A stretch of DNA of 51,167 nt from positions 1-51,167 of the forward strand of contig JALWGH010000076.1 in assembly GCA_027013735.1 (NCBI GenBank). Direction: 5' to 3'. A program made the position numbers and the translations under genes. This DNA is from Melioribacteraceae bacterium (lineage in GTDB: Bacteria; Bacteroidota; Ignavibacteria; Ignavibacteriales; Melioribacteraceae). The notes under the pieces are model-generated. The model saw nothing but the letters and a program-made list of their open reading frames with translations, had not been told where the DNA came from and did not search any database. Numbering within the stretch: position 1 is the stretch's first letter; every line of letters starts with the position of its first letter. This document shows positions 2,750 to 44,441 of the stretch, in pieces.

Positions 2750-2830
2750 AATTGTCGGGGCGTAATGCTTCTGTTATTATTAGTCCGAACAACACACGCC
2801 TCTTGAATGTGCTGTAAAATCAGGGGGAGT

Positions 2831-3445
2831 TTAGTCTCCCCCGTAAATTTCGTCGTAATCTTTAATAGCCGCTTGAATAACCTTAAAAGCATGCTCTTTC
2901 CCGAAAACGGTTTCGATTGAAAATTTATTCTCTTCGCCGGGAATCAATTTGTAAGTTGTAAAATAATGTTGCAGGCGTTCAACCAAAACATCTGGAAGTT
3001 CGGAAATATCGGTAATGTTTCCGTAAATATTGTCGTTTTTAAGTACGGCAATTATTTTGTCGTCTGCCTCGCCGTGGTCAATACCTTGTAAACCGCCAAC
3101 AACACGTGCACGTAAAATAATCTCTCCGCGAGAAATCGGTCGCTCGCTAATTACGCAAATGTCCAATGGGTCGCCATCGCCCTTGCCTGCTTTGGGATTT
3201 AGCTCCCCTATTCTTTCACCGCAGTAAGTTCTGGGAATAAAACCGTACAGTGCAGGTGGGTGGGAAGAACTTCTCTGGGGACGGTCAACGTGAATGTAGC
3301 CGGTGCTTTTGTCCACTTCGTATTTCACGAAATCAAATGGTGTAATTTCGATGTAGGCATTAACAATTTCCGGTGGATTCTCTCCAACCTCCAAGCCATG
3401 CCAAGGATGCGGTCGCCAACGGTAGAATGATTTTGGAAAAGCCAT
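2831..3445 (-). CDS. ppa: Inorganic pyrophosphatase (family I)
   Basis: [18 protein letters not shown]...[10 protein letters not shown]...DDKIIAV are typical family I PPase motifs. Confidence 0.9.
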
Positions 3446-4493: not shown

Positions 4494-5888
4494 TTATTCT
4501 TTTTCCTGTTCAACAACTTTCCAGTAACCTCCTTTGTCGGGCCCGATACGTTTAATTTTTCCTTCTTTTTTTAATTTAGCTAAATTCCACTCGATTCCTC
4601 TTCTTGTTAAGCCGGTAATCTCTATTAGATCATTTATTGTAACTGTAGAATTATTTTTCATAGCAGAAATAATTTTCTCCACAGTTTTCTCCACAGTTTT
4701 CTCCACAGTTTTCCCCGAAGTTATCCCAAGTTTTATAATTGTCTTAAATAGCTCCCCATCCACAAACTCGGCTGTAGCGCCCTTTGAATAGTACGGCAGA
4801 TATTTGAAAACGTTACGCATACCCGAACCAACTTCTTCTACCAACCCCATTTGTAGTAAAAATTTACTGATAGTTGGATTCTTAGCAATAGGTGTAAAGT
4901 GTTCAGGATCAATTTTGCCGAAAACAATAGGATTATTGGGATTGCTAAATTCAACGGTATCCGAAAAAATCTGAATCATCGCCGGTGCAGGATGCATATA
5001 TTCGCGGTGGGCAATACTATTAACCACCAATTCACGGAATATTTTACTGCGTAAGCTAATGCGAATATTACCCTCCAGATAAAACGGATCGTTCAAGTGT
5101 TTTTCGATAAAGCCCATCAGCAAATCATACGCATCAAGCAAATTTGTACGCACGGTAATCCGGTCATCGTACCGATCCACATTTTCGCGCCGCAGTAACG
5201 CTTCGAACTTGTAAGCAGGTAGAACCGACTGGATTAAATCATCCGTGCCAAAAAACAGAATCGCTGCTAAGGTATAGCCTTCGTTACCGTTCTTTGCTTT
5301 TCTGTAAAATCCGGCACGCGCCAGCAGTGCTTTTTCATCAAGTTCCTGCCAATGATGTGCCGTGTTGTTTAATTTAATTAATTGCTTTGCTCTTGCTATT
5401 AAATCTTGCCTGAAATCACCAAACTTAATTTCGGGAAAAACCGTTTGCTCGCTATAGTAATTTTGTTTACGATTAACGATTTTGGCAATCTCTGGGGGAT
5501 AAGTTACTCGATAGTCGCCATCCTGATTTCTGATGAAAATATCTCCATTAGATTTATGAACATACGAACTTTCCGGTACTTTAATGACTAATACGATTTT
5601 ATCCTCAATTTCAATTTCGTCAACGGATAAAACAATGGATGGTGACAGCTTTTGTTGGTTATTAGCAAGATTTGCAATGTCTTTTTTAAGCTTTGCCACC
5701 TCTTTTTTGTTGACACCAATAATTTTACCTTTATCACTGATGCCGAGTAAAATAAAGCCACCCTTGGTATTAAGAAAGGCACAGATTGTCTCAAACAGAT
5801 TAGCCGGTAGTTTATCGTGACTTTCCTTAAACTCAATACGCAGATTTTCTCCGCTTTTAACAAGCCGTAAAAGTTCGCTTTCCGTCAT
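4494..5888 (-). CDS. Schlafen/AlbA_2 DNA-binding domain protein with an ATPase-like middle region and a C-terminal winged-HTH (RecG-like 'transcriptional regulator' family)
   Basis: N-terminus ESELLRLVKSGENLRIEFKES...NTKGGFILLGISDKG is typical of AlbA_2. The C-terminus TINDLIEITGLTRRGIEWNLAKLKKEGKIKRIG looks like a wHTH. Confidence 0.65.
   Translation of the reverse strand: MTESELLRLVKSGENLRIEFKESHDKLPANLFETICAFLNTKGGFILLGISDKGKIIGVNKKEVAKLKKDIANLANNQQKLSPSIVLSVDEIEIEDKIVLVIKVPESSYVHKSNGDIFIRNQDGDYRVTYPPEIAKIVNRKQNYYSEQTVFPEIKFGDFRQDLIARAKQLIKLNNTAHHWQELDEKALLARAGFYRKAKNGNEGYTLAAILFFGTDDLIQSVLPAYKFEALLRRENVDRYDDRITVRTNLLDAYDLLMGFIEKHLNDPFYLEGNIRISLRSKIFRELVVNSIAHREYMHPAPAMIQIFSDTVEFSNPNNPIVFGKIDPEHFTPIAKNPTISKFLLQMGLVEEVGSGMRNVFKYLPYYSKGATAEFVDGELFKTIIKLGITSGKTVEKTVEKTVEKIISAMKNNSTVTINDLIEITGLTRRGIEWNLAKLKKEGKIKRIGPDKGGYWKVVEQEKE
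4673..4720. repeat. 12-bp in-frame tandem repeat (ttttctccacag x3 plus one degenerate copy)
   Basis: Direct reading gives ttttctccacag three times, then ttttccccgaag. It encodes (KTVE)3 in the minus-strand CDS. Confidence 0.9.
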
Positions 5889-6170: not shown

Positions 6171-7364
6171 ATGTTTGGATTCAAGAAAGCAGCCTTGTTT
6201 TTAACTATAGTAGGAATTCTATTTGGTTTTAATGCGTGTGGAGTTAGTGAAAGCGCGCCGGCAAAAGCGGAAGTTTCGGATGCCGAAACTCTCTCAAAAT
6301 TAATTGAGACTATGCCAGTCGCTTCCGATACTATTAGTAAAGCAGTTGTTGAAGGATTACAATATATGAGGGAAGAAGAGAAACTTGCGCGTGACGTTTA
6401 TATTACCTTGAATGATATTTACGATTACAGAGTTTTTAAAAACATCTCAAAATCAGAACAAATTCATATGAATGCTATTCTGTACTTATTAAATCGTTAC
6501 GGAATAGAAGATCCGGTTAAAGATGATGCTGTCGGTGTTTTTACAAATCCTGATTTGAAAGAATTATACGAAACACTTATTGCACAAGGTAAGACTTCTG
6601 GAACCGATGCGTTGAAAGTAGGTGCAGCTATTGAGGAAATTGACATTTTGGATTTACTTGAGAAAACAAAAGAGGCCAAAGAATATTCGGATGTAACGAG
6701 GATTTACGGTTTCTTGGAAAGAGGTTCTGAAAATCACTTGAGAGCATTTGTAGGCAATTTGAGAGTTCAAGGAATAGCTTATGAACCACAATATTTGGAA
6801 CAAGAGTTTTTTGATGAGATTATTAACTCCCGTAATCATCCGCCGGTTGTGGCCGATTCAACTTTAACCGATGATGAGAAGGCAGCATTGCAATACGTTA
6901 TTGAGGAGGAAAAGGTTGCACATGATCTTTATCTCACGCTTTACAACGAAAACAATTTGAAAGTATTTAAAAATATTGCCCGTGCTGAACAAAGACACAT
7001 GAATTCGGTTGAGAGATTGTTGAATTTCTACAAAGTTGAAAATCCAATTAAAGATAATACGGTTGGTGTTTTTGCAAATTCGGATTTACAAGAACTTTAT
7101 GACACAATGGTTCAGAAAGGTTCCCAATCCGAGATTGAAGCATTAAAAGCCGGTGCTGCAATGGAAGAAATGGATATTCTTGATTTGCTAAATAAGATTG
7201 AAACCGTCAACGGACACAACCGAATTACAGCGGTCTTCAAGCGTTTGGAAAAAGGCTCGGAAATACATTTAAGAATATTTGTTAGAATTTTAAAATTAAG
7301 GGGTATTACGTACGAACCTCAATATTTGGACCAAGCAACTTTTCAAAAAATTATTAATCCATAA
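6171..7364 (+). CDS. Secreted lipoprotein with two ferritin-like DUF2202-type domains
   Basis: Lipobox FGFNAC. EEEKLARDVYITL...FKNISKSEQIHMNAILYLLNRY is repeated as EEEKVAHDLYLTL...FKNIARAEQRHMNSVERLLNFY. Confidence 0.6.
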   Translation: MFGFKKAALFLTIVGILFGFNACGVSESAPAKAEVSDAETLSKLIETMPVASDTISKAVVEGLQYMREEEKLARDVYITLNDIYDYRVFKNISKSEQIHMNAILYLLNRYGIEDPVKDDAVGVFTNPDLKELYETLIAQGKTSGTDALKVGAAIEEIDILDLLEKTKEAKEYSDVTRIYGFLERGSENHLRAFVGNLRVQGIAYEPQYLEQEFFDEIINSRNHPPVVADSTLTDDEKAALQYVIEEEKVAHDLYLTLYNENNLKVFKNIARAEQRHMNSVERLLNFYKVENPIKDNTVGVFANSDLQELYDTMVQKGSQSEIEALKAGAAMEEMDILDLLNKIETVNGHNRITAVFKRLEKGSEIHLRIFVRILKLRGITYEPQYLDQATFQKIINP

Positions 7365-11988: not shown

Positions 11989-12039
11989 GTTTTAAATAGT
12001 GTCAAGAGGGCTTTTAGCGAAGCCTTGATTTTTACAACA

Positions 12040-15000
12040 ATGAGTAAAAGCAATTTAAAATTGTTTTTTCTTGCGTTGTTAATTCACGCTAATGTTGCAG
12101 GACAAACGCGCGATTCGCTAATATTTACGGAGGTGATGTTTCGTCCTTCCGCCGCAAACTCCGAATTTATTGAGTTGTTTAATCTCTCTTATTCCGATTC
12201 CGTTGACCTAAAAGGCTGGAGTGTTAAATATCACTCTTCGAAAAAAGATTTTTTAGATTCTTTAACAATTGGGAAAAAATTATCTCCCCGTAGCTACGCT
12301 GTTGTTTTTGAAGGCGACTACGATTTTGAAAACGGCGTTTACAAAAATCTGATTCCCGTGGACGCATTGGTTTTAAAAATTTCGGACAACGCTTTTGGTT
12401 CTTCGGGAATGTCAAATTCGACAAACAGAACACTGCTGTTGTTTGCACCGAACGGCGAGGTTGTTGATTCTTGTGAATACACTGCGGACAACAACGCCGG
12501 ATATTCCGACGAAAAAATATTATTAGACAAAGGCGACTCATCGGACAATTGGGCAAACTCAAAAATGTTTAACGGCACGCCGGGAAATCGCAATTCGGTT
12601 AGCCCGTGGGATTACGATGTGGGGATTTCGTCTATTAAAATTTTTCCGGAAAAGATTTTTGTAAACGATACGGCAAGAACGGAAGTAAAAGTTTTTAATA
12701 AAGGGTTACACGCTGCAAATAATTTTAACGTTTCCATTTACACATCGAAAGATTCCGTTAATTACAATTTAATTTTTGAGCAGACGGTTAACGAGATTGA
12801 CCCAAACGATTCTGTCTCTCTGAGTGCGCGGTTTGTTGCCGGGCAGTCAGGTAAAGTCTTTTTGAAATCAGTAATTAGCTTTAACAAAGATCAGAATAAT
12901 ACAAACGACACTACTTCAGCATTTTTTGAGGTCAGACCTAAACCAAATAGCAGGGGCGATGTGGTAATTAACGAATTAATGTACAAACCGAAGCAAGACG
13001 AACCAGAGTGGATTGAACTTTACAACCCAACACAAAGTAAAATTAATCTAAAAGGCTGGGAAGTTAGAGATAAAACAAGTAAGACCGATTTGTCCGATAC
13101 TTCAGTCTTTATTGATGCAGGCGGATATGTCGTTTTTTCGAGGGACACGCTCTCATCCAATTATTTAGGCAATTTTAAAACCGTAATAATCAATTTACCT
13201 TCCTTAAACAACTCTGGCGACAGGATTGTTTTGCTTGATTCCCTCGGGCAAACAATCGACTCGCTCGAATATTACGCCGACTGGGGAGGCGGAACAGGAC
13301 TTTCTCTTGAAAGAGTTAGTGCTGCAGGGGAAACAAACAACCCCGAAAATTGGGGAACGTCGAAAGGCAATTACGGCGGTACTCCGGGCAGACTCAACTC
13401 AATTTCACCCAAGAAATTTGACCTTGCCATTCAAACGTTCGACTCGGATCAAAAATTCATCGAATACCAACACGAATTAAAAACATTCGTAATAATTAAG
13501 AACAAAGGTTCGGAAGACGCTAAGAATGTAATGTTAAAAATTTACCTCGATAAAAATAAAGACAACTTTCCTCAAAACAACGAGGCTCTTGATTCACTAA
13601 TAATAACGGGGCTTTCATCGGCTGATAGTGTGGAAAAGTCAATAATATTAAGTGATTTGCCTCTTGGTAAAAACACTTTGATTTCTTCTCTTGATTTTGC
13701 TAAGGATGAATTCCCTGACAATAATATTGCCGAATTGGAAGTGAACATCGTTAAATTTGCGGCGGAGAAAGGGGACATCGTGATTAACGAAATAATGTAC
13801 GCGCCTGTAAACGGCGAACCTGAATGGATTGAACTGTTTAATAAAAGTAACAAGGAAATAAATTTGCAAAAATGGTTTGTCGGGGACAATTTACACAAAG
13901 TTACGTTAAGTGAAGAGAGAGCAATTGTTTTACCCGGAAAATATTTTTTGCTTGCGAAGGATTCATCATTTTTAGATTACCACAATTTAACTTCCGGAAT
14001 TACATTTGTGGAGTTCCCGTCATTGAACAATGCCGGGGATGCTGTTGTGATTAAAGATTCGCTCGACCGCTTAATTGATTCGGTTTATTATTCTTCCGCC
14101 TGGGGAGGCACAAAAGGAAAATCATTGGAAAGAATTTCTGCATTTGCGGAAGGTAAAGATTCTACGAACTGGAGCTCTTCAGTTGCAAAAGCAGGCTCAA
14201 CTCCCGGAAAAATAAATTCTGTTTCACAAAAAGAGTTTGACCTTTGTCTTGAAGAACTCACAGCAAGCAAATCTTATTTTGCAGTTAGTTCAAAAATTGA
14301 ACTAAATGCAAAAATAAAAAATTTAGGAATCGAGCCGGCTGAGAGCGCGTCTCTGGATTTTTATTTTGACGGGAACAAGGACGACAAAATTACCGCTGAC
14401 GAATTTATTAAATCGGTTGCGCTGCCCGGCATAGGTTTTGGCGACAGCCTAAAACTGACGGTCGATTTAAATGAATTGCCCGTCGGACAAAATAAAATAT
14501 TCTCGGTTATTAATTTCCCCGAAGATCAGTTTAACGATAATGATACCGCAAGTGTTGTTGTAAACATCGTAAAAATAAATGTTGACAAACAAGACGTTGT
14601 TGTAAACGAAATAATGTTTGCGCCGACGGATGGCGAGCCAGAATGGGTTGAGTTGTTCAACAAAAGCGAAAAGGAAATAAATCTTAGTAATTATTATCTT
14701 GGAGACAATTTCTCTTTTGCAAATCTTGTAAAAAGTAATTTGTTGTTAGAACCACAAGGCTATTGTGTAATAGCAAAAGACTCTTCCATTTTTGATTTTT
14801 ATTCAATTAACAGCAAAGTTCTTGTTACTTCTTTTCCGAATTTGAACAATGGCGGAGACGAGGTTGTTTTGAAAGATTCTCTTTTCAGAACAATTGATTC
14901 GGTAAAATATTTCTCCACTTGGTTGAAGAAAAACGGTCAATCGCTCGAAAGAATTTCGCCGGCACAAAGTTCAACCGATTCGGCTAACTGGGGAACTTGT

Positions 15001-17496
15001 GTTTTGAAACAGAAAGGGACCCCGGGGACACTTAACAGTATTTCAAAGAAAGATTTTGATGTGGCAATTGATTCGGCGTGGGTCTTTCCGGATTTAGTGG
15101 AAGCAGGCAAATCCTTTGGCTTAAAAGCAGTGGTTAAAAATGTCGGAAAAAACAAAATTGCTTTTACTGTGAATGTTTACAAAGATGAAAACGGAGATTC
15201 AATTGCTGACAAACAAATGTACGCTTCAGCTTTATTTAGTTTGGCTTCCGATTCATCAATGTTGGTTTCACTCAATAATATCAGTGCTTTGAACGCCACA
15301 ACAGATTTAATCGTGAAGTTAAACTGTACGGAAGATATGAACCTTGCTAACAACAAGTATTATTTAACCGTAATTCCAACGTTTAAGAAAAACTCAATCA
15401 TAATAAGCGAAATAATGTTTGACCCTTCGGGCGATGAGCCCGAGTGGATTGAGTTGTTTAACAACAGTACGGATACTGTTAATCTAAAAGGCTGGAGCAT
15501 CTCGGACGTTTTGGCAACGCCTTCGAAAACAATAATTACAAAAGAAGATTGTCCCTTGGCTCCGAAAAGCTATTTGGTAATTGCAAAGGATTCTTTAATT
15601 TTTAATTATCACAAAACAATTCCCTCGAAGGTAATAGTAATTCCTTTTGCAAATTTAAATAACACGGAAGACGGAGTAGTATTAAAAGACGGGGCTTTAA
15701 CAACCGTAGATTCGGTTAAGTACTGTGATTATTGGCTTGAAAAGGAAGAGCACTCCATTGAAAAGAAAGATTTTAATTTAAATTCCACATCCGCTTCAAG
15801 TTGGGGAACTTCCGTTGACAAAGAGAACAGCACGCCGGGTAGAATAAACAGCATCCAAATAAATATTAAAGATTTAATAGTAACGGACATTTTCACCGAA
15901 CCGGCATTTCCTTTAAGAAACAGTGATATTAACATTAAAGTAAAAGTGTTAAATCGTTCTAAAGAAAAAATCAATAATGTTTTGTTAAAGACTTTTGTTG
16001 TTGATAACGGAGAAAGGTTGTTTGACTCACTACGTATTACAAATATTAAGGGAGGCGATTCTCTAATAATATCAACGCAAAACAAGTGCCACATTGTCGA
16101 TTCGCTTAAAATAAAGGCTGAAATAAACTGCGCCGCTGACGAGAACCCTTTTAACAACTCCCTGACAAAAACTGTTTTTGCAGGTGTGGATAAAAACACG
16201 ATTCTTATTAGCGAGTTTTTAGTTTTGCCCGATACAAACGAAACACAGTGGGTAGAGTTTTACAACAACTCGGGTGCGGAAATCGACTTAAAGAATTGGA
16301 CGATTACGGACGTGCGACCGGAGGAGAAAGAAAAAACACTCGTTTCTCAGTCCACAATAATTAAGGCAGGTGAATACTTTGTTGTTAGCAGGGACACGTT
16401 GCGTAATACATCCGAGAGTGTGAAAGAATTTGTTGTTAATTTTGGTAACTTAAGTTCAAAGGAAGACGGAATAGTGTTACGGGATTTTCGCGGGCAAACA
16501 ATTGACAGTCTTTACTACACCACCAACTTTCCAATTGTGCGTGGTCGTTCGGTGGAAAGGCGTAGTTTTAACGACTCAACGAACAATGTGAGCAACTGGC
16601 TATTTTGTTTGGACAGGGAAAGAAACACTTTGGGGAAGGTAAACTCTGTTTTCCAACTCACCCCGGCTGAGAAGAAGTCGGTCGTAATAAATGAAATAAT
16701 GTTTGAAACTTCACAAGACTTTCCCGAATATTTGGAACTAACCAATGTCTCTAAAAACCCCGTGGATATTGGCGGTTGGAGTTTAATAATCGGGAAAGGC
16801 AATAAATACTGGCTTTCCGGCGAACGCTTAAGTTTAAATCCCGGCGGCTATTTTGTTTTTGCTTCGGATTCAAACATCTTCGACCGTTTCGGAATTTCCC
16901 CAAAAAGCAAATTTGTTTCTGTTTCCAATAGCAACTCTTTTTCTTTGTCGAACTCCGCAGACGCCGTTGTGATTAGAGACGCATTTAATAATGTAATTGA
17001 TTCGGTTTACTACAGTGGTTCTTGGTGCAACAATAATATTTTGAACACGAAAAACAAATCCCTGGAAAAACTAAATCCTCTTTTTGAAAGCAACGACAAA
17101 ACAAGTTGGAGTACTTGCGTTGACGCAAGAGGTGGAACGCCCTTGAAGAAAAACTCCGTGTTTACGCCTTTGAAAAAAGTTTCTTCGGGATTAAGTATTT
17201 TCCCAAATCCGTTTTCCCCGGACGAAGACGGGCACGAAGATTTTACGGTACTTGCTTACAAATTTAGAACTCCTGTTGTGCAAATACGCGCGAGGGTGTT
17301 CGACGACCACGGCAGACTTGTGCGAACGTTAGCGGTTAACAAGGCATCTTCGGGCGAAGGTAAAATTGTCTTTGACGGCAGGGACGATTCCGGCGCTACG
17401 CTTAGAATGGGAATGTACATTGTGTTTATTGAGGCTGTGGGAGCGCAAAACAAAACGCTCGAAACATTGAAAGAAGTTGTGGTAATTGCCCACTAA
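12040..17496 (+). CDS. Giant secreted protein: 7 lamin-tail-domain (LTD) repeats interleaved with Ig-like (CARDB-like) domains, plus a FlgD-Ig/T9SS-like C-terminal domain
   Basis: Signal peptide MSKSNLKLFFLALLIHANVAGQ (ATG 12040; the track starts at TTG 12025). The motif (V/I)INEIM(Y/F)xPxxxEPEWIEL(F/Y)N...L(K)GW recurs starting near nt 12118, 12961, 13777, 14596, 15397, 16201 and 16681. Each repeat ends in GTPGxxNS. C-terminus FPNPFSPDEDG...GMYIVFIEA. Confidence 0.8.
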   Translation: MSKSNLKLFFLALLIHANVAGQTRDSLIFTEVMFRPSAANSEFIELFNLSYSDSVDLKGWSVKYHSSKKDFLDSLTIGKKLSPRSYAVVFEGDYDFENGVYKNLIPVDALVLKISDNAFGSSGMSNSTNRTLLLFAPNGEVVDSCEYTADNNAGYSDEKILLDKGDSSDNWANSKMFNGTPGNRNSVSPWDYDVGISSIKIFPEKIFVNDTARTEVKVFNKGLHAANNFNVSIYTSKDSVNYNLIFEQTVNEIDPNDSVSLSARFVAGQSGKVFLKSVISFNKDQNNTNDTTSAFFEVRPKPNSRGDVVINELMYKPKQDEPEWIELYNPTQSKINLKGWEVRDKTSKTDLSDTSVFIDAGGYVVFSRDTLSSNYLGNFKTVIINLPSLNNSGDRIVLLDSLGQTIDSLEYYADWGGGTGLSLERVSAAGETNNPENWGTSKGNYGGTPGRLNSISPKKFDLAIQTFDSDQKFIEYQHELKTFVIIKNKGSEDAKNVMLKIYLDKNKDNFPQNNEALDSLIITGLSSADSVEKSIILSDLPLGKNTLISSLDFAKDEFPDNNIAELEVNIVKFAAEKGDIVINEIMYAPVNGEPEWIELFNKSNKEINLQKWFVGDNLHKVTLSEERAIVLPGKYFLLAKDSSFLDYHNLTSGITFVEFPSLNNAGDAVVIKDSLDRLIDSVYYSSAWGGTKGKSLERISAFAEGKDSTNWSSSVAKAGSTPGKINSVSQKEFDLCLEELTASKSYFAVSSKIELNAKIKNLGIEPAESASLDFYFDGNKDDKITADEFIKSVALPGIGFGDSLKLTVDLNELPVGQNKIFSVINFPEDQFNDNDTASVVVNIVKINVDKQDVVVNEIMFAPTDGEPEWVELFNKSEKEINLSNYYLGDNFSFANLVKSNLLLEPQGYCVIAKDSSIFDFYSINSKVLVTSFPNLNNGGDEVVLKDSLFRTIDSVKYFSTWLKKNGQSLERISPAQSSTDSANWGTCVLKQKGTPGTLNSISKKDFDVAIDSAWVFPDLVEAGKSFGLKAVVKNVGKNKIAFTVNVYKDENGDSIADKQMYASALFSLASDSSMLVSLNNISALNATTDLIVKLNCTEDMNLANNKYYLTVIPTFKKNSIIISEIMFDPSGDEPEWIELFNNSTDTVNLKGWSISDVLATPSKTIITKEDCPLAPKSYLVIAKDSLIFNYHKTIPSKVIVIPFANLNNTEDGVVLKDGALTTVDSVKYCDYWLEKEEHSIEKKDFNLNSTSASSWGTSVDKENSTPGRINSIQINIKDLIVTDIFTEPAFPLRNSDINIKVKVLNRSKEKINNVLLKTFVVDNGERLFDSLRITNIKGGDSLIISTQNKCHIVDSLKIKAEINCAADENPFNNSLTKTVFAGVDKNTILISEFLVLPDTNETQWVEFYNNSGAEIDLKNWTITDVRPEEKEKTLVSQSTIIKAGEYFVVSRDTLRNTSESVKEFVVNFGNLSSKEDGIVLRDFRGQTIDSLYYTTNFPIVRGRSVERRSFNDSTNNVSNWLFCLDRERNTLGKVNSVFQLTPAEKKSVVINEIMFETSQDFPEYLELTNVSKNPVDIGGWSLIIGKGNKYWLSGERLSLNPGGYFVFASDSNIFDRFGISPKSKFVSVSNSNSFSLSNSADAVVIRDAFNNVIDSVYYSGSWCNNNILNTKNKSLEKLNPLFESNDKTSWSTCVDARGGTPLKKNSVFTPLKKVSSGLSIFPNPFSPDEDGHEDFTVLAYKFRTPVVQIRARVFDDHGRLVRTLAVNKASSGEGKIVFDGRDDSGATLRMGMYIVFIEAVGAQNKTLETLKEVVVIAH

Positions 17497-22539: not shown

Positions 22540-22730
22540 GTAGGGGACGCAAAGTTTGCGTCCCCTACAACAGATAGATTAATTGTTCGTAGCTCGTAGG
22601 GACAGCTCGTGAGCTGTCCCCATGATGAGAAACAAATTAAAATTTTAACCGTGGAGACAACTTGCAAGTTGTCCCTACCAATCACGTTATCGTTCAACAG
22701 CCGTAGGGACAAGTCGCGACTTGTCCCTAC
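22540..22730 (+). repeat. REP array, 4 units upstream of the RAYT-like gene
   Basis: Palindromes at 22540-22568 (gtaggggacgcaaagtttgcgtcccctac), 22596-22621, 22651-22678 and 22703-22730 (gtagggacaagtcgcgacttgtccctac). The first and fourth units are preceded by a ...gttcaaca... linker; the second has only a weak version and the third none. Confidence 0.85.
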
Positions 22731-22764
22731 GATTTATTGACAAAGAAAAACAGGGTAAAACAAA

Positions 22765-23406
22765 ATGAAAAACAGAAAACCAAACAGGTTGCCGTTTTTC
22801 GATTATTCAAATCCCGCATGGTATTTTGTTACCATTTGCACGAAAAATCACATTCAACATTTCGGCAAGGTTCAAAACGGAAAAATGATTTTAAACCAAT
22901 TTGGGAAAATTGTTGAGAATGCGTGGAATTGGCTTAGTGAACAATATGATTATTGTAAATTGGACGAATACGTAGTTATGCCAAATCATTTTCATGGGAT
23001 AATTATTATTGACCCAGAATTTAATCAAAATAAGCGTAGGGACAGCTCGCGAGCTGTCCTTACAATCCACAATAACATTCAACAGAATAGTAGGGACAAC
23101 TCACGAGTTGTCCCTACAAATTACGTTAACATTCAACAGGAACGTAGGGACAAGTTGCGACTTATCCCTACGAAAGAGGCAACAAAACACATTAAAATTA
23201 AATCTTTATCTGAGTTGGTTGGGGCATTTAAAACAAAATCCTCTAAAGAAATTCACCTTGCGGGTAATCCCCATTTCAAATGACAGCGGTCTTTTTTCGA
23301 CAGGATAATCCGCAACGAGAGGGAATTGTACAACATCAGAAATTACATTCAACAAAATCCGTTGAAATGGGAGATTGAAAAAGGAGTAGAAAATTTAGAT
23401 TTTTAA
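22765..23406 (+). pseudogene. REP-associated tyrosine transposase (RAYT, IS200/IS605-like Y1 HUH family), interrupted by an in-frame TGA at 23281-23283
   Basis: N-terminal part YFVTICTKNH...VVMPNHFHGIIII (HUH motif). After the TGA, the same frame continues QRSFFDRIIRNERELYNIRNYIQQNPLKWE to TAA 23404-23406. This carries the family C-terminal (W)QxxFxDxIIR...YIxxNP segment with the presumed catalytic Tyr. Confidence 0.7.
23035..23170 (+). repeat. Three REP units inside the RAYT-like reading frame
   Basis: Units begin at 23035, 23089 and 23143, an exact 54-nt period. Each is a GTAGGGACA...TGTCCCTAC-type palindrome. The second and third are preceded by aacattcaacag. Confidence 0.85.
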
Positions 23407-23455
23407 TTAACAAATATTCCACGTGTTTAAATGGAAAAAATGTTGATGTTCAAAT

Positions 23456-23532
23456 GTAGGGGACGCAAATTTTGCGACCCCTACAGATTAAGTTAACGTT
23501 CAGTAATGGGACAGCTCGCGAGCTGTCCCTAC
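23456..23532 (+). repeat. REP array, 2 units downstream of the RAYT-like gene
   Basis: gtaggggacgcaaattttgcgacccctac (23456-23484) and gtaatgggacagctcgcgagctgtccctac (23503-23532). Confidence 0.8.
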
Positions 23533-23638
23533 AAATACCATCTCAAACACAACCAAAATCCACGCATCCCTAATTTTTCAATTAGATTTTCCTTATTTTC
23601 GAGTTGTGAAATTTGAATATTAAACCGGAAAAGGACAG

Positions 23639-27326: not shown

Positions 27327-27384
27327 AATTGAAAGTTGAAAATTTCTAAGCGCTGGATGATTGGATGAATGGATTTTTGGATGG
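27327..27384 (-). repeat. Mosaic intergenic repeat, locus A (W-module plus G-module, inverted relative to loci B and E)
   Basis: aattgaaagttgaaaattt (27327-27345) and tggatgattggatgaatggatttttggatgg (27354-27384). These are the reverse complement of the CATCC-rich and TTCCA-rich modules at 29211-29280 and 41141-41216. Confidence 0.75.
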
Positions 27385-27576
27385 TTTTGATTTACATTAC
27401 TACTTTTTTCCAAGGGATAACATCTTGATTAACCACAGGTTTCAACCTGTGGGATTAGCAAGCGAAAACAACAGAAAAGTTTTGGCGCGATTTTTGGGTT
27501 GGGGTGTTTGAGATAACTACCGCTGTTGGCGGGGCAAGCAAAAATCGTGACAAAACGTTAATGGGAAACCAAACGA

Positions 27577-29210: not shown

Positions 29211-29280
29211 GATTCATTCATCCATGCATCCGATCATCCGTAATGTGAAATTTTCCACTTTCCATTTTCCACTTTCAATT
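29211..29280 (+). repeat. Mosaic intergenic repeat, locus B (G-module plus W-module)
   Basis: gattcattcatccatgcatccgatcatccg, then aaattttccactttccattttccactttcaatt. Confidence 0.75.
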
Positions 29281-29404
29281 AATTATCTTTAACACCTCAC
29301 CAATTACAGCCTTCATCGGCAGCTCAATTTGTTTCCTCCCTTGCTTAACCCTTGGCATTTTAATAATTTGCATGTTCATTTTAAAATAAAAATTACGGAC
29401 GGCA

Positions 29405-33199: not shown

Positions 33200-33619
33200 T
33201 TACATTCCAACGCTTACGGTGTCGGAAATTTCTGCGCTTTGCGAGCTGAGGTCGTCTCTAACAAAATAATGAACTACGTATTTCCCTTTTGCAAAGGTAG
33301 AATCGAGCTCAATTTGAACTTCAATCGGCACGTCGGAAATTTCTTCCTTTTTGTTCACATCCTTAATTCCGTCGTAAGCGTTTTTCAAAGTATCTCCGGC
33401 GGGAGTTATTAAATCGATGGAGTAAGATAATTTGGCGATGTATTGATCTTTGTTCTTCTCCTGCCGTAATCCTTTAACTCTTACCGAGCCGTTAAGTTCC
33501 CAACCGCTGTCAAGCTCGTAGGCAAAAGATTCCGGCGAAAAGAGCGCAAGCTTTTCTTCCTTTTTGGAACAAGCTGTTACAATTAAGATTACCGATGCTA
33601 TTAGTGCGAGTTTTTTCAT
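33200..33619 (-). CDS. Lipoprotein of unknown function
   Basis: Signal/lipobox MKKLALIASVILIVTAC; 139 aa; no family recognised. Confidence 0.55.
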   Translation of the reverse strand: MKKLALIASVILIVTACSKKEEKLALFSPESFAYELDSGWELNGSVRVKGLRQEKNKDQYIAKLSYSIDLITPAGDTLKNAYDGIKDVNKKEEISDVPIEVQIELDSTFAKGKYVVHYFVRDDLSSQSAEISDTVSVGM

Positions 33620-33638: not shown

Positions 33639-33750
33639 AATAAGTCTTAAGTAACGAGTAATTCGTCTTACGTCTAAATTACTTGTCGCGCCGAAGCCAA
33701 GCATAGCGCAGGCGTAGGCGGATTTCTCGTTTCTTCTTTCTTATTTTATT
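33639..33750 (+). repeat. Mosaic intergenic repeat, locus C (S, C and T modules)
   Basis: aataagtcttaagtaacgag..., then cttgtcgcgccgaagccaagcatagcgcaggcgtaggcgga, then tttcttctttcttatttt. These match the modules at 38188-38387 and 41217-41392. Confidence 0.8.
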
Positions 33751-33781
33751 AAAAATCTCCGCCCCCGCCTCAGCAGGGGCG
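33751..33781 (-). terminator. Probable terminator downstream of serC
   Basis: cgcccc...ggggcg hairpin. On the minus strand it is followed by gagattttt. Confidence 0.55.
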
Positions 33782-38103: not shown

Positions 38104-38187
38104 TTTTCCCGGTTAATTAGTGCACACTTACTTTAATAAACATTTTTGTTCCTTTGGGTTTCAAATATAAAGACAATTCAATTATTA

Positions 38188-38387
38188 AATAAGTCTTAAG
38201 TGACGCGTGACGAGTCTCAAGTCTCTGTTCACTGTTATCCGTTCTCTGAATAGGGCGTCTTGCTTGTCGCGCCGAAGCCACGCAAGATGCGGGGCGGAGG
38301 CGGACGTCTCGCCTCTTGCTTGTCGCGGCGTATCCCGAGCATAGCGAGGGCGAAGACGGGACTCTAGCGAAAATAATTTCTTATTCA
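38188..38387 (+). repeat. Mosaic intergenic repeat, locus D (S module, C module duplicated in tandem, T module)
   Basis: aataagtcttaagtgacgcgtgacgagtctcaagtctctgttcactg, then two 57-nt C units starting at 38256 and 38313 (tcttgcttgtcgcg...), then aataatttcttattc. Confidence 0.8.
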
Positions 38388-38511
38388 ATTCTATTTTTAT
38401 CACCAATATTTCTTGTACTACTATTTACTAAACTATTGAATGTCTGTTTATTCTTTGTCACATCTTAACTAAATTTCAATCTCGGAATTAGAATAATAAT
38501 CGGAGAAACAA

Positions 38512-40988: not shown

Positions 40989-41084
40989 AGATTGCCACGC
41001 GCCTCCGACACGTCGGAGCCGTTTGCAATGACAGTGGTGTATTATAGATTGCTTCGCTTCGTTTCACTCTGCTCGCAATGACAG
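40989..41084 (+). repeat. Two AGATTGC...GCAATGACAG hairpin elements
   Basis: 40989-41034 (with an inner perfect palindrome ctccgacACgtcggag) and 41046-41084. Both are bounded by complementary attgc/gcaat ends. Confidence 0.7.
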
Positions 41085-41140
41085 TTCATGTGCTTTTTGT
41101 CCAGCCCAAGTAAAACCTGCAAGGGGAAGGGATGTTGAGC

Positions 41141-41392
41141 AATCCAATAATCCAATTATCCAACCATCCAAAATTTTCAATTTAACTTTCCATTTTCCCT
41201 TTTCCACTTTCAATTGAATAAGTTTTAAGTCTCACGTAACGAGTCTCAAGTCTCTGTTCACTGTCCTCTGTTATCTGTTCACTGCGCAGTTATTTCTTGC
41301 GTCTTGCTTGTCGCGCCGTAGTCAAGCGTAGCGCAGACGAAGGCGGACGTCTCGCGTTTAACCATTTCTTCTTTCTGGTTTCTTATTTCTTC
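41141..41392 (+). repeat. Mosaic intergenic repeat, locus E (full module series G-W-S-C-T)
   Basis: aatccaataatccaattatccaaccatcca / ttttcaatttaactttccattttcccttttccactttcaatt / aataagttttaagtctcacgtaacgagtctcaagtctctgttcactg... / cttgcttgtcgcgccgtagtcaagcgtagcgcagacgaaggcggacgtctcg / tttcttctttctggtttcttatttcttc. Confidence 0.85.
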
Positions 41393-41544
41393 TGTTTTTT
41401 GCCAACAAATTTAAATTTGCACCCAGCTTTTAGAGTGTAAAACCGCCGGCAATTGCCATTTCCCGGTTCCTGAATTTGATTTTGAGCCGAACTCTTGTTA
41501 TCTATGAAACTCTTTTTTAATAATTTACCCGAAGGGAAAACCCA

Positions 41545-43635
41545 TTGTTAAAAATAAAACGCACAAAGACATTAAAGAAAGAACTAAAATTTATTGACGT
41601 TTTTGCTATTGCGGCGGGCACTACCCTGAGTGCCGGATTCTTTTTGTTGCCCGGAATAGCAGCACAGCAGGCGGGTACGGCAATGATTCTTGCTTACGTT
41701 TTGGCTACCCTGCCTTTGATTCCTGCAATGTTCAGTATTGTTGAGCTTGCAACCGCAATGCCGAGGGCAGGCGGGGTTTACTTCTTTCTCGACCGCTCGC
41801 TCGGTCCACTCTTCGGGACAATCGGCGGAATAGGAACTTGGGCGGCGCTCGTGCTTAAGGTTACTTTTGCGCTTGTGGGAATGGGCGCTTACATCAGTCT
41901 TTTTTTTGAAGACGTGCAGATTCTCCCAATCGCAATCGGGTTTGCCATTTTACTCGGAGCTCTCAATTTGTACGGTTCAAAAAAGAGCGGGAATTTGCAA
42001 GTTGGTCTTGTTGCTTTGCTTTTAATTTTACTTTCGATTTTTATTGCCGGCGGATTCACGGAACTTCATTACGAACACTTTAACAATTTCTTCGGCGCGG
42101 GTTTCTCAAACATTCTTGCTACGGCAGGACTCGTTTACATCAGCTACGTGGGAGTAACAAAAATTGCAAGTCTTTCGGAGGAAATTGAGAACCCGGAAAA
42201 GAATTTACCCCGCGGTGTTTTTGCTGCGCTTGGAACGGCAATTCTGATTTACATTCTCGGAACTACGGTGATGGTCGGGGTTTTGCCGATGAACGAGCTT
42301 GCGGGAAACTTAACCCCCGTAGCTTCTGCCGGCAAAAAGATTTTCGGACCGGTGGGGGAAATACTCCTTGTGCTTGCGGCGCTGCTTGCGTTCCTTTCGG
42401 TAGCAAACGCCGGAACGCTTAGTGCTTCCCGCTACCCGTTGGCAATGAGTAGAGACCACATTACTCCCGATGTTTTCAAAAAGCTTAACAAAAAAGGCAC
42501 GCCGGCAGTCGCAATAATTTTTACCGTTGCAACGATTGTCTTGATTCTCATTTTGTTTGACCCCGTAAAAATTGCAAAGCTTGCCTCGGCGTTTCAATTG
42601 CTGATGTTCTCTTTCGTCTGCCTTGCGGTAATTGTAATGCGGGAAAGCAAAATAGAATCTTACGACCCGGGGTACAAATCCCCCCTTTACCCGTGGATGC
42701 AGATTTTCGGAATTGCGGCAGCCTTCTTTTTGATTGGAGAAATGGGAAGCATGCCTCTTATTTTCTCTACCGGCTTGATCCTGTTTAGCTTGCTTTGGTA
42801 TTTCTTTTACGCTAAGGAACGCGTCGTGCGAGCCGGTGCAATTTACCACATCTTTGAACGCCTCGGGCGCAACCGTTACGAAGCGCTGGATTCGGAACTG
42901 CGCGGTATTCTTAAAGAAAAAGGGCTTCGTAAAAACGACCCGTTCGATCAAGTGGTAATGCGCGCGAAAGTGTTTGACTTTGACAAGACAATGGAATTTG
43001 AGGAAGTTGTAAATTACGTTTCCGAATGGCTCTCGAAAGTCATTCCTTTGCCGGCGGAAAAAATCAAAGAACAGTTTTTGGAAGGAACGCGTGTTGGCGC
43101 CACGCCTGTTGCACGTCAGGTGGCACTGCCACATTTCCGGCTTGATGTCGTTCCTCAAACGGAGCTGACAATTGTCCGCTGCAAGCCGGGAGTAAAAATC
43201 ACTTTAATAGATCCGCTTACGCACGAGCCCGAGGAAGAACAAATCGTGCACGCACTTTTCTTTTTGGTTAGTCCTGAAAACAACCCGACACAGCATTTAA
43301 GAATGCTTGCCCAAATTGCAGGGCGGGTGGAAGACGATACGTTCGTTCCCGAGTTTAAAAATGCGGCGAACGAAATCGAGTTGAAGAAAGCTCTTTTGCA
43401 CGACGACAGATTTCTTTCCCTCGTAGTTACCAAAGGAGCTCCGACTGAAATTTTTGCGGGAAAAACCGTTGCTACCAGCGGGCTTTCTTCCGGTTGCTTG
43501 ATTGCACTAATTGCACGGGCAAACAAGACAATTGTTCCGAATGGAAAAACAAAAATTCTTGAAGGTGACAAGTTAACCATCATCGGAGAGCCGGGATTGC
43601 TTAAAAAATTAAAAGAAAAATACGAGCTAAAGTAA
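41545..43635 (+). CDS. APC-family amino acid permease fused to C-terminal PTS-EIIA(Ntr)-like and TrkA_C (RCK_C) domains
   Basis: About 12 TM helices (aa 1-430). Then VALPHFRL...ALFFLVSPENNPTQHLRMLAQIA (EIIA_2-like with the His retained). Then ...LIALIARANKTIVPNGKTKILEGDKLTIIGEP (RCK_C-like). TTG start. Confidence 0.75.
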   Translation: MLKIKRTKTLKKELKFIDVFAIAAGTTLSAGFFLLPGIAAQQAGTAMILAYVLATLPLIPAMFSIVELATAMPRAGGVYFFLDRSLGPLFGTIGGIGTWAALVLKVTFALVGMGAYISLFFEDVQILPIAIGFAILLGALNLYGSKKSGNLQVGLVALLLILLSIFIAGGFTELHYEHFNNFFGAGFSNILATAGLVYISYVGVTKIASLSEEIENPEKNLPRGVFAALGTAILIYILGTTVMVGVLPMNELAGNLTPVASAGKKIFGPVGEILLVLAALLAFLSVANAGTLSASRYPLAMSRDHITPDVFKKLNKKGTPAVAIIFTVATIVLILILFDPVKIAKLASAFQLLMFSFVCLAVIVMRESKIESYDPGYKSPLYPWMQIFGIAAAFFLIGEMGSMPLIFSTGLILFSLLWYFFYAKERVVRAGAIYHIFERLGRNRYEALDSELRGILKEKGLRKNDPFDQVVMRAKVFDFDKTMEFEEVVNYVSEWLSKVIPLPAEKIKEQFLEGTRVGATPVARQVALPHFRLDVVPQTELTIVRCKPGVKITLIDPLTHEPEEEQIVHALFFLVSPENNPTQHLRMLAQIAGRVEDDTFVPEFKNAANEIELKKALLHDDRFLSLVVTKGAPTEIFAGKTVATSGLSSGCLIALIARANKTIVPNGKTKILEGDKLTIIGEPGLLKKLKEKYELK

Positions 43636-44282
43636 TGAAACTGGAGTTTACCAAACTACCCGCAAAGGAAATGCTCAAGCGTTCGGAGGAATTCAAAAAC
43701 TTAATGCTAAGGCGGAGAACCGTCAGAAGTTTTTCCAAAGAGTCGGTTGATTTTAGAATAATTGAGAATGCCATTCTTACGGCAGGCAGCGCGCCCAACG
43801 GCGCAAACAAACAGCCGTGGAAATTCGTTGTGGTTTCGAACCTGGAAATTAAAAGAAAAATCAGGGAAGAGGCTGAAAAATTAGAAAAGGAGTTCTACGA
43901 AAAAACCGCACCGGAAGAATGGCTGGAGGATTTGAAACCTTTGGGCACGGGCGCAAGCAAACCTTTCCTTGAAGATGCGCCGTATTTGATTGTTGTCTTT
44001 GCAGAGAAATACAGAATTGTTAACGGCAAAAAAGAAAAGAATTATTTTGTCAAAGAATCCGTGGGCATTGCAACCGGGTTTTTGGTCGCTGCGTTGCACA
44101 ATGCCGGATTGGCGGTTTTAACTTACACACCGAGCCCGATGGACTTTTTGAGTAAAATATTAAGCCGTCCCGAAAACGAAAAACCTTTTATTCTGCTTGC
44201 CACCGGTTACCCGAAAGAAGACACGGAAGTGCCTGATATTACAAAGAAAAGTTTGGAAGAAATTTTAATTACCGTTTACTAA
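43635..44282 (+). CDS. Nitroreductase-family flavoprotein
   Basis: RRTVRSFSKE...AGSAPNGANKQPWKFVVV pattern. 1-nt overlap with the upstream stop. Confidence 0.8.
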   Translation: MKLEFTKLPAKEMLKRSEEFKNLMLRRRTVRSFSKESVDFRIIENAILTAGSAPNGANKQPWKFVVVSNLEIKRKIREEAEKLEKEFYEKTAPEEWLEDLKPLGTGASKPFLEDAPYLIVVFAEKYRIVNGKKEKNYFVKESVGIATGFLVAALHNAGLAVLTYTPSPMDFLSKILSRPENEKPFILLATGYPKEDTEVPDITKKSLEEILITVY

Positions 44283-44441
44283 TTAAGAATTAAGAATAAA
44301 AATTAAAAAAATATTGTTGATGTTGTTGTTGGAAAGTTAAATTATTTTCACGCACCAACAAATTTTTAACAAATTAGGGCGCTTTATTATTAAAATGATG
44401 ATTAAATTTAGCAACTAAATTATTAAAAAAAAGCAGGAAAA

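Follow-up and report, generated by a model that had tools for sequence, protein, structure and literature searches.

Intergenic repeat mosaics with a TGTC-tagged hairpin in an Ignavibacteriota contig: a probable REP/BIME-like element

The stretch of DNA analyzed here, hereafter the window, is a 51,167-nt contig (JALWGH010000076.1) of ~41% GC that carries the housekeeping genes ddl, ftsB, leuS, serS, clpB and MTHFR and a gene for an mgsA-like ATPase. Its leucyl-tRNA synthetase (LeuRS) shares 73-75% identity with those of Melioribacter roseus and Ignavibacterium album and 87-88% with a few proteins from metagenome-assembled genomes (MAGs); on these identities, the source is therefore assigned to an uncultured member of the Ignavibacteriota. 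Five loci of the window, named A to E, carry short repeats built from five modules that stand in the order G, W, S, C, T in locus E. Module C is a hairpin with a TGTC tag, and the other modules consist mainly of arrays of 7-8 nt words. We regard it as probable that all five loci represent copies, most of them incomplete, of a mosaic of the kind known as repetitive extragenic palindromes (REPs) and bacterial interspersed mosaic elements (BIMEs), where the tagged hairpin is joined to slippage-prone word arrays. The repeats are best read as neither a new gene nor a regulatory RNA, but as REP/BIME-like DNA gained and lost in modules. The observations behind this are the repetition of the modules, their confinement to intergenic DNA, covariation in the hairpin, its cross-phylum family, an indel between strains, the differing content of related genomes and the dispersal of a C and T composite.

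Five intergenic loci and their modules

All five loci lie between open reading frames (ORFs) with Pfam-supported functions, and the sole Rfam or tRNA match in the window is a tRNA-Lys at 22329. The features of the loci are listed below with their strand in the window. Word arrays were delimited with Tandem Repeats Finder (TRF), and R1 denotes a covariance model of the hairpin made from 65 copies from other phyla and zero window sequences.

Locus A, 27327-27392, minus strand: W end and G words; on the plus strand the 8-nt unit reads TGGATGAT, 3.8 copies at 27354-27383 (TRF).
Locus B, 29211-29300, plus strand: G words (8-nt unit, 2.9 copies, 29218-29240), W words (7-nt unit, 3.6 copies, 29252-29276; TRF) that end in TTTCAATT at 29280, and a degenerate start of S; repeat family D12.
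Locus C, short S module, 33639-33682, plus strand: heptamers TAAGTCT, TAAGTAA, CGAGTAA, TTCGTCT and TACGTCT; repeat family D7; begins 20 nt from the start codon of the minus-strand gene 33200-33619.
Locus C, hairpin, 33683-33723, plus strand: R1 hit 33681-33724, E 1.4e-11; RNA and DNA folds give the model structure.
Locus C, T module, 33725-33750, plus strand: TTTCTTC words; adjoins a bidirectional terminator-like hairpin at 33760-33781.
Locus D, S module, 38184-38256, plus strand: the last W word (TTCAATT) stands directly before it; from search and alignment.
Locus D, hairpin D1 with its heptamer, 38264-38312, plus strand: 42-nt hairpin (38264-38305) and GTCTCGC (38306-38312); R1 hit 38262-38306, E 3.7e-12.
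Locus D, hairpin D2, 38320-38361, plus strand: diverged 42-nt tandem copy in the orientation of D1, between CTCTTGC (38313-38319) and CTCTAGC (38362-38368); R1 hit 38318-38362, E 6.5e-5; repeat family D5.
Locus D, degenerate T and extension (AATTTCTTATTCAATTCTATTTTTATCACCAATATTTCTTG), 38369-38425, plus strand: a weak assignment from comparison by eye with 41360-41420.
Locus E, G module, 41130-41171, plus strand: 8-nt words AATCCAAT, 3.9 copies at 41141-41171 (TRF), and a short complementary left arm GGATGTTG; in the fold, GGATG pairs with CATCC.
Locus E, W module, 41172-41215, plus strand: 7-nt words TTTCCAT/TTTCCAC, 4.1 copies of the unit TTTCCAT at 41187-41215 (TRF), ending in TTTCAATT.
Locus E, S module, 41216-41300, plus strand: heptamers TAAGTTT/TAAGTCT/CACGTAA/CGAGTCT/CAAGTCT, then CTGTTCA, 4.4 copies at 41254-41284 (TRF, period 7); 85% identical over 65 nt to 38184-38248 (repeat family D8).
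Locus E, C hairpin, 41308-41348, plus strand: 41 nt, with a TTGTC tag, outer stem (G)CGCC/GGCG, internal loop GTA/GAA, inner stem GTC/GAC and apical GCG-TAG-CGC; bracketed by the heptamers GTCTTGC (41301-41307) and GTCTCGC (41349-41355); R1 hit 41306-41349, E 6.4e-12; the DNA fold equals the model hairpin.
Locus E, T module and conserved 3' extension, 41356-41425, plus strand: ATTTCTT, 4.0 copies at 41364-41391 (TRF), then the extension TTTTTTGCCAACAAATTTAAATTTGCACCC, which holds TAAATTTG at 41412-41419.

A 16-mer of C, searched with up to three mismatches, has four sites (33683, 38264, 38320 and 41308), all on the plus strand, for a shuffled expectation of 0.57. The 3' half of C also occurs four times (expected 0.51), a W 15-mer seven times (0.79) and an S 23-mer twice without mismatch (0). 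Local alignment joins E to D over ~145 nt of S and C with one 7-nt unit as an indel, E to C over 93 nt, E to B over 87 nt that cover G, W and the initial bases of S, and the reverse complement of A to B and E over ~50 nt. The loci are thus joined by contiguous homologous segments, beyond mere low complexity or scattered words, and repeat finding recovers the same families (D5, D7, D8, D11 and D12). The homologous block of locus E continues beyond T to ~41425. An assembly artefact was rejected, as these sequences are present in ENA and Logan assemblies from at least four samples.

These results bear out much of an earlier note on this DNA. It had placed modules at five loci, all of which were recovered by exact or near-exact search above the shuffled expectation, and it had recognized a second repeat family distinct from the GTAG REPs at 22.5-23.5 kb, which is upheld. 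Locus A is inverted, as the note had said, with the W end and G words on the minus strand relative to B and E. Its picture of modular, intergenic, recombining sequence in ordered subsets agrees with the position of 5/5 loci between ORFs, with a unit indel between strains and with module sets that differ among relatives. The contents that it gave for each locus were right as to ordered subsets but need amending for locus D, which holds two tandem C units (38264-38305 and 38320-38361), a degenerate T and a retained last W word, TTCAATT. The spurious 73-aa ORF to which it pointed (38185-38406, minus strand) is present and reads through both hairpins as '...LAWLRRDKQ...'.

By TRF, modules G, W and T, like the 3' part of S, consist of short arrays whose units are 7-8 nt long. 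The 5' part of S is heptameric by eye (TAAGTCT, TAAGTGA, CGCGTGA, CGAGTCT, CAAGTCT), and many S words, as read from the sequence, contain a GTC core that resembles the hairpin tag. The window holds nine arrays with a period of 7-8 and at least 2.9 copies, where block shuffles give 0.23 +/- 0.47; of these, eight are intergenic, the intergenic share of the window being 11.5%. Tandem 7-nt units in intergenic DNA, which characterize heptameric simple sequence repeats (SSRs), are found in the arrays at 29252, 41187, 41254 and 41364. Loci D and E stand one 7-nt unit apart, as expected from slippage. A further intergenic heptamer array, AATTAAG/AATTAAA in ~4 copies, lies outside the five loci at 44281-44309, between a nitroreductase gene and a 787-aa ORF.

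An exact W 22-mer occurs in three phage-like IMG/VR contigs (L248-L250; sequences fetched from elsewhere carry numbers of this form). In these contigs, (TTTCCAC)n/(TTTCAAC)n arrays of the module W word, at most ~16 units long, lie in intergenic DNA beside gene starts (~6200-6390 of L248, minus strand); in one contig the 22-mer falls within ~16 TTTCCAC/TTTCAAC units that stand between phage-like genes. G, W and T are ordinary short-period tandem arrays and not parts specific to one transposon. The composite mobile or recombining element proposed in the earlier note accordingly holds in part: the loci are modular, recombining and non-coding, but G, W and T are not specific transposon parts. Viral scans with degenerate patterns gave G matches above a rough chance estimate, and the S pattern was too permissive.

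The module C hairpin and its family

The C hairpin is GC-rich and 41-42 nt long. On its 5' side it bears a TGTC tag; next come a stem of 4 bp (CGCC/GGCG, one base bulged), an internal loop, a second stem of 3 bp and, at the tip, variable sequence that is self-complementary. A scan of one genome per species with the 17-mer pattern CTTGTCGCGCCGWAGYC returned at least 118 stretches. The matches listed are mostly from Verrucomicrobiota, and also from Acidobacteriota, Kiritimatiellia, Planctomycetota, Bradyrhizobium/Bosea, Hyphomonadaceae and one Melioribacteraceae MAG. Many lone matches to the pattern in high-GC genomes are due to chance. In about half of the listed matches, GGCGAAGGCGGA, the 3' half of the hairpin that lies outside the query, follows after 1-21 variable bases, within 45 nt. 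Across the family, an outer stem pairs GTC(S)CGCC with GGCGGAC, a symmetric internal loop reads G-W-A/G-N-A and an inner stem pairs GYC with GRC, whereas the tips are free and often self-complementary (CCGAC...GTCGG in L098, CCCGCAG/CTGCGGG in L020, CGCA-AGA-TGCG in hairpin D1).

The inner pair Y15-R2' covaries, with 42 C-G, 10 T-A, 4 T.G and 1 C.A (Fisher p = 2e-7), and in the window the copy of locus E has T-A and the other copies C-G, a compensatory change. Among the 65 non-window copies, 90.9% of cells are paired, a value reached by 0/500 shuffles, while slid controls give 29-45%. The 5' half is fixed by the scan pattern and the 3' half partly constrained by the regular expression; therefore, the informative evidence is that the 3' half recurs and that the Y-R pair covaries, together with the tips. 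Searched with R1, the window yields exactly four matches, all on the plus strand, with the E values listed above, and the next best match has an E value of 0.22. The window copies thus score significantly against a model that contains none of them and show compensatory stems. Module C belongs to a hairpin family of Verrucomicrobiota, Acidobacteriota, Kiritimatiellia, Planctomycetota, Alphaproteobacteria, Ignavibacteriota and phages.

Rfam has no family for C: the window gave no match to it at the gathering threshold, and in positions 41000-41560 no credible match arose at E <= 10. At 12 further loci, canonical copies were also without a match, except for those in L007 and L102, which lie inside an RNase P RNA gene. 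G.T wobbles number 44 against 8 A.C (13 against 8 when the doubtful outermost pair is excluded), and G.A pairing in the internal loop is possible on the shown strand only; these two facts hint that TTGTC...GGCGGA is the folding strand. Hairpin orientation shows no bias relative to local GC skew (31 vs 33). The flanks of the hairpins resemble one another above controls (4.36 vs 3.94 +/- 0.10), and a stop-to-stop ORF context analysis was uninformative in high-GC genomes. With its preceding base, the 3' arm of C in L030 and L040 (cf. window 38297-38304) reads TGGCGAAGGCGG, a universally conserved segment of 16S rRNA, and searching the literature for sequence strings yielded only 16S rRNA primers; we treat the match as a coincidence.

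The hairpin is rare in relatives. In 1.13 Mb around leuS from Ignavibacteria and Bacteroidota, R1 finds only a copy in L090 and one partial match, compared to four in the 51 kb of the window. At least eight strong matches lie in IMG/VR contigs, including contigs with terminase/portal (L237) and capsid (L213) genes. In Kiritimatiellae MAG GH20, the hairpin belongs to another composite, specific to that lineage, with at least four occurrences (two in L005, one each in L029 and L109). In L056, the loop of another widespread hairpin, CTCCCTCTCCTCG...CGAGGAGAGGG, houses a C-type hairpin. Both belong to a 136-nt inverted repeat (3067-3202 and 6829-6964), 94% complementary and made of three nested or adjacent hairpin modules, which encloses two genes of 321 and 864 aa without a Pfam match.

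Two copies are lodged in RNase P RNA genes, both ~100-110 nt longer than the 367-position model. In Bradyrhizobium tunisiense (L007 901-1379, minus strand, 479 nt), the hairpin lies antisense in an enlarged P12 tip, beside a second palindromic stretch. In Bosea sp. (L102 4690-5153, plus strand, 464 nt), where position alone was checked, its coordinates fall inside the gene on the opposite strand. A homologue of the REP-associated tyrosine transposases (RAYTs) in L029 (2159-2731, minus strand) starts ~55 nt from a C-type hairpin (2785-2822, plus strand). It has 26% identity to a RAYT of the window (E = 7e-12) and is the sole RAYT homologue detected in the 4.1 Mb of fetched loci; the adjacency, a single case, is a lead and no demonstration. 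This gene holds an internal palindromic insertion, GGGCGCC ATTCTT GGCGCCC.

The spacer that contains locus E holds a second hairpin type.

Second tagged hairpin, 41022-41085, minus strand: TGTC-ATTGC-GAG...GAA-GCAAT at 41048-41085, with a half copy at 41022-41036.

The full copy, TGTC-ATTGCGAGC...GCGAAGCAAT, gives rise to the spurious peptide CHCEQSETKRSNL. Its motif TGTCATTGCGAG recurs in Chthoniobacterales and Opitutus loci of the Verrucomicrobia (L041 and L047), so the spacer holds a second cross-phylum hairpin, whose architecture (tag, short stem, purine internal loop) is like that of C.

Strain alleles and related genomes

The same organism is represented in other assemblies, from the ENA JOHN19-1 samples and from Logan runs. 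Contigs of these assemblies stop within modules: at 41328, 41322 and 41347 in the C module of locus E, at ~38275 and 38213 in locus D, and at 33710, 33675 and 33654 in locus C, as multi-copy repeats would lead a de Bruijn assembly to do. Copies beyond the window, a point raised in the earlier note, are thereby addressed indirectly, the source genome being known from this contig and from fragmentary assemblies. Contigs that span loci are 98.4-99.9% identical to the window, with loci C and E retained. In locus D, two contigs (L206 and L201) lack exactly 38264-38312, that is, 49 nt made of the 42-nt hairpin D1 and GTCTCGC, and read GTCTTGC joined to CTCTTGC at the junction; these strains are 99.6% identical to the window. 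Collapse of a tandem pair was rejected as the cause of the indel, as it would remove 56 nt through the shared 14 nt and would not keep both heptamers. Both are kept at the junction, and the 49-nt indel is therefore a real allele.

Hairpin D1 is bracketed by the 6/7-identical heptamers GTCTTGC...GTCTCGC and D2 likewise by CTCTTGC...CTCTAGC, an arrangement consistent with insertion plus duplication as well as with precise deletion by slippage. The 188 nt at 38302-38489, which comprise D2 and the spacer toward a peptidase gene, have 93.6% identity to L206 1-188, compared to 99.6% elsewhere, suggesting that the D2 patch was replaced from another copy by conversion or recombination. The earlier note had raised the possibility of presence/absence polymorphism and target-site duplications between strains. 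One hairpin-plus-heptamer unit is indeed present in the window and absent from L206 and L201, but strict duplication is weakened, since the 3' heptamer recurs in the related locus L445 with one mismatch.

Upstream of leuS, four genomes with 87-100% LeuRS identity have a common 75-nt leader directly before the gene, and the sequence beyond it differs.

leuS leader, window 29330-29404; L445 475-550; L446 6530-6604; L444 9925-10000: CTTGCTTAACCCTT...ATTTTAATAATTT...TTCATTTTAAAATAA...TTACGG.

Judging by its conservation, this stretch may be the leuS promoter or leader; the window copy has no Rfam match, and its upstream neighbors differ in all four genomes. Beyond it lie G and W in the window, an array of AAAAGGTA (x4.9) in L446, nothing in L444 and a mosaic of at least 470 nt in L445. 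L444 and L446 (87-88% LeuRS identity) have none of the modules. The L445 mosaic has an ATTCATA array, after which G-like words, a small hairpin and W-like words follow in turn; ~60 unique nt separate these from a second set of G-like words, and next come a C hairpin whose 5' arm has decayed, T words and the 3' extension of locus E. Over 65 nt, its C, T and extension (L445 375-440; LeuRS 88%) match locus E with 89% identity (E = 7.5e-16), and this copy lies upstream of leuS whereas locus E lies upstream of a permease gene. The Melioribacteraceae MAG locus L090 shares ~130 nt with L445, 42 bases of it exact, in another gene context. The composites have therefore dispersed to non-orthologous sites, with the rough order G..W..X..C..T kept and modules swapped or lost.

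Farther away, 80 metagenome LeuRS loci (<=76% identity) contain no module by blastn-short or covariance model; they keep only the leuS-serS synteny, and hence no orthologous spacers are comparable in them. The nearest homologue of the 414-aa neighbor gene has 45% identity, and its locus (L200) is without such repeats. Two further repeats of the window lie within ORFs. One is a perfect 12-nt tandem repeat, TTTTCTCCACAG, with 3.4-4.6 copies at 4673-4734 in the ORF 4494-5888 (minus strand), which would encode a repeated tetrapeptide. The other is a set of four to five internal repeats with a period of ~800-820 nt (families D2, D3 and D6) in an 1823-aa ORF at 12025-17496 (plus strand), probably a large repetitive surface protein.

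Interpretation and comparison with known repeats

If the five loci are copies of a REP/BIME-like mosaic, as we think probable, the C hairpin should form in single-stranded DNA, or in its RNA transcript, and act as a small non-autonomous unit: copies of it would arise, settle beside or within other repeats and be lost again. Its mobilization through single-stranded DNA, in the manner of REPs, might rest on an enzyme of the HUH type or of some other kind, and the word arrays would expand and contract by replication slippage. The direct-repeat heptamers beside the hairpin would serve as the substrate for precise gain or loss of the hairpin-plus-heptamer unit. Juxtaposition, nesting and recombination between dispersed copies could then yield the ordered composites G-W-S-C-T. 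Any sequence-specific benefit to the host would be little or none, beyond possible effects of the hairpin on transcripts.

Several observations weigh against this interpretation. No mobilizing gene was identified for the repeats. The only RAYT of the window (22765-23400, plus strand, the '172-aa ORF') is of the subclass-2.4 type and is surrounded by REPs (22540-22732, 23036-23173 and 23455-23534) of a different, GTAG 'double-foot' family, GTAGGGACA...TGTCCCTAC, and not by C. It was missed by a Pfam scan, which gave a weak JetA match only, and it has an in-frame TGA (23281-23283) at the conserved Trp of the 'WQ' motif, for which reason the protein may be either inactivated or dependent on read-through. 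The C hairpins fold as RNA or DNA with energies no better than those of shuffles (z -1.6 to +1.2), so it is covariation only that carries the structural argument. Beside hairpins of other phyla, arrays are weakly enriched, with 9-10% of flanks above the control 95th percentile (p = 0.04 and 0.15); as a general companion of the hairpin, word arrays are thus weakly supported outside this lineage. An S 21-mer has no match in Joint Genome Institute (JGI) metagenome contigs. The 3' heptamer, GTCTCGC in D1 and E, recurs in the non-orthologous L445 copy as GCCTCGC and is followed by GTTTAAC in both E and L445; it is therefore part of the unit and not a target-site duplication, and the 49-nt indel could be a deletion instead of an insertion. 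Lastly, the kept order G..W..X..C..T and the C-T end that faces a gene start in D, E and L445 could reflect a function, for example as a promoter/5'UTR cassette or as a small RNA.

Four other explanations were weighed. Tentatively, and with low expectation, the C hairpin (33-45 nt) can be seen as a class by itself, either a very small mobile element or a module recognized by a protein, which at least six bacterial phyla and their phages would share almost unchanged. A putative, widely conserved enzyme would handle it, possibly an HUH/RAYT relative as the adjacency in L029 hints, with the GTC-core heptamers as its landing pads or scars. Such a unit could be defined by the TGTC tag, a clamp stem, an invariant internal loop flanked by G.A/A.G and a free tip, and could settle in the loops of other hairpins and in the P12 tip of RNase P RNA. 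We find it unlikely that S, C, T and the extension make up a portable cis-element, that is, an outward promoter, a 5'-untranslated cassette or a transcript-stabilizing or insulating hairpin kept for the downstream gene. In D, E and L445 the T/extension end does face a gene that starts 95-150 nt downstream, and in phage contig L237 the hairpin comes directly after the terminase stop on the sense strand. The TAAATTTG of the extension fits a Bacteroidetes-type -7 box, the consensus of which we take to be TAnnTTTG, but its spacing to a -33 TTTG, read from the sequence, is wrong, and scans of the extension found no promoter-like or terminator-like site above background. REPs are described as affecting mRNA stability and termination (PMC6006769); the unit of locus C, however, faces away from the adjacent gene start and is antisense to both neighbors, and orthologous leuS genes keep the 75-nt leader, not the modules.

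We are more doubtful still that C is a ~42-bp MITE (a miniature transposable element with inverted repeats) whose arms are the terminal inverted repeats of a DDE insertion sequence (IS) ending in CTTGTCGCGCC..., with a 7-bp target duplication and heptamer words left as insertion or excision footprints. The brackets around three of the four window copies (6/7-identical GTCTTGC/GTCTCGC twice, CTCTTGC/CTCTAGC once), an indel equal to the hairpin plus 7 nt with one heptamer kept at the empty site, and flanks seen elsewhere (TCCGCG-TAAC/TCCGCGGTAAC in L041, CCCCGCGGG in L068, TCCATCC in L094) are what such an element would leave. However, the recurrence of the 3' heptamer in L445, one mismatch apart and followed by GTTTAAC as in E, marks it as element sequence, and locus C is without a flanking duplication. 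The arms also differ by a fixed GAA/GAA mismatch and a bulge, which, along with the bias of the wobbles toward G.T, points to one folded strand and not to duplex terminal repeats, and no IS with such ends was seen in the 4.1 Mb of fetched loci, in which no systematic search was made. A non-coding role for locus E is very improbable, whether as a small RNA gene with a C/U-rich seed, GC hairpin and U-rich tail or as an antisense sponge whose GGA words titrate a CsrA-like protein. The antisense of G has 4-5 GGAT words with GGA spaced by 8 nt, C followed by a T-rich tract recalls the 3' end of a small RNA, the module order is kept between E and L445/L090, and post-transcriptional regulators have been proposed to act at intergenic heptamer repeats (PMC4679880). 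Against this, there is no Rfam match even at E <= 10, the fold of the whole element does not differ from shuffles on either strand (z = -0.31 and +0.69), the U-tract of E does not directly follow the stem, and promoter and terminator scans stayed at background, with no candidate promoter found. Moreover, one of the five loci is complete, A is inverted to its downstream gene relative to B and E, and the word arrays vary in copy number and sequence. The structured or sponge RNAs suggested in the earlier note thus find no backing in Rfam, in folds, in the inconsistent orientation of G and W or upstream of orthologous leuS, where the words are not conserved.

The mosaics have practical consequences, as they break metagenome assemblies and seed spurious ORFs (peptides '...LRRDK...' and 'CHCE...'), and a model of the hairpin would clean annotation in many MAGs. 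REPs are normally species-specific; the unusual feature here is that the sequence of the hairpin barely changes across phyla and phages, and a near-constant tagged hairpin that ranges from Ignavibacteriota to Verrucomicrobiota, Acidobacteriota, Alphaproteobacteria and phages is unexplained by models of REP/RAYT co-evolution. The 49-nt presence/absence allele in co-occurring strains is an entry point to how such units move. If the units are inert, they represent ordinary, well-documented turnover of intergenic repeats.

REPs, BIMEs, (C/T)GTC-tagged REPs without a known transposase and REPs nested in palindromes have all been described (PMC3733652, PMC6006769), and HUH Y1 enzymes recognize a tag with an imperfect hairpin in REPs and at IS200/IS605 ends (PMC6006769). 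Like the REPs, BIMEs and REPINs (paired REPs) of E. coli and Pseudomonas, C is a short GC-rich imperfect palindrome: its 5' foot carries a conserved tetranucleotide that stays unpaired, and its stem contains a bulge or mismatch. The window repeats are likewise extragenic (4/4 C copies within 51 kb) and probably multi-copy, form mosaics with other short motifs and give spurious ORFs, and the window includes a RAYT with REPs of its own. The earlier note had called the family unrelated to REPs and free of clean palindromes; both statements fail for C, an imperfect palindrome that folds into a tagged hairpin of the REP kind, carries TGTC at its 5' end and belongs to a family of many phyla. The tag is TGTC, or CGTC in some copies, compared to the GT[AG]G of REPs, and GTAG occurs in C only inside the internal loop of copies with W = T, not at the foot. 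Tandem C copies stand head to tail whereas REPs in BIMEs form inverted doublets: all four hairpins are on the plus strand, without the alternating orientation of BIMEs, and D1 and D2 are spaced by 56 nt; the general mosaic character alone is common. C also recurs across phyla, in contrast to the usual species specificity of REPs, and the linkers in the window are slippage-type arrays of 7-8 nt, whereas those of BIMEs are fixed motifs.

A super-family with (C/T)GTC tags has been reported in Chlorobi, Bacteroidetes and other groups, its transposase not being known (Di Nocera et al. 2013, PMC3733652); the tagged class includes Neisseria dRS3 and Rickettsia RPE-4/6 (PMC3733652). C resembles these repeats in the (C/T)GTC tag at one end of the stem-loop and in mosaic intergenic clusters. 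Of the unpaired tags CGTC, TGTC and CCTC, it has TTGTC in all window copies and CGTC in L014, L034 and L094. The described families have a stem of 8-9 bp that starts with A/T pairs, a loop of 4-5 nt and a CCA tail (PMC3733652), whereas C has a GC-rich stem interrupted by a 3x3 purine loop, tips of 12-13 nt in the window, and a tail of A followed by T, A or C, with no CCA. The sequence of C is absent from the supplementary tables of PMC3733652. The second hairpin of the window, at 41048-41085, fits those family definitions better than C does.

The small dispersed repeats of Nostoc, reportedly described by Elhai and colleagues in 2008 (cited in PMC3116915), are said to be hairpins of <50 nt found inside other repeats and conserved RNA genes. 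These repeats and the pneumococcal BOX elements are like those of the window in their tiny hairpin units and modular composites with variable internal units, although sequences and hosts differ. The word arrays also recall the cyanobacterial short tandemly repeated repetitive (STRR) heptamers that Mazel and colleagues are said to have reported in 1990. TAACTGA heptamer repeats occur in Beggiatoaceae, Cyanobacteria and Bacteroidetes, where they were proposed to be sites for post-transcriptional regulators (PMC4679880), and PMC4692102 describes heptameric SSRs as over-represented in bacteria. The window arrays share with the STRR and TAACTGA repeats their tandem 7-nt units in 2 to ~6 copies, intergenic position, patchy cross-phylum distribution and frequent proximity to gene starts. 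Unlike STRR and TAACTGA repeats, the window has several words side by side (ATCCAAT, TTTCCAC, TAAGTCT, CTGTTCA and TTTCTTC), joined with hairpins in dispersed composites.

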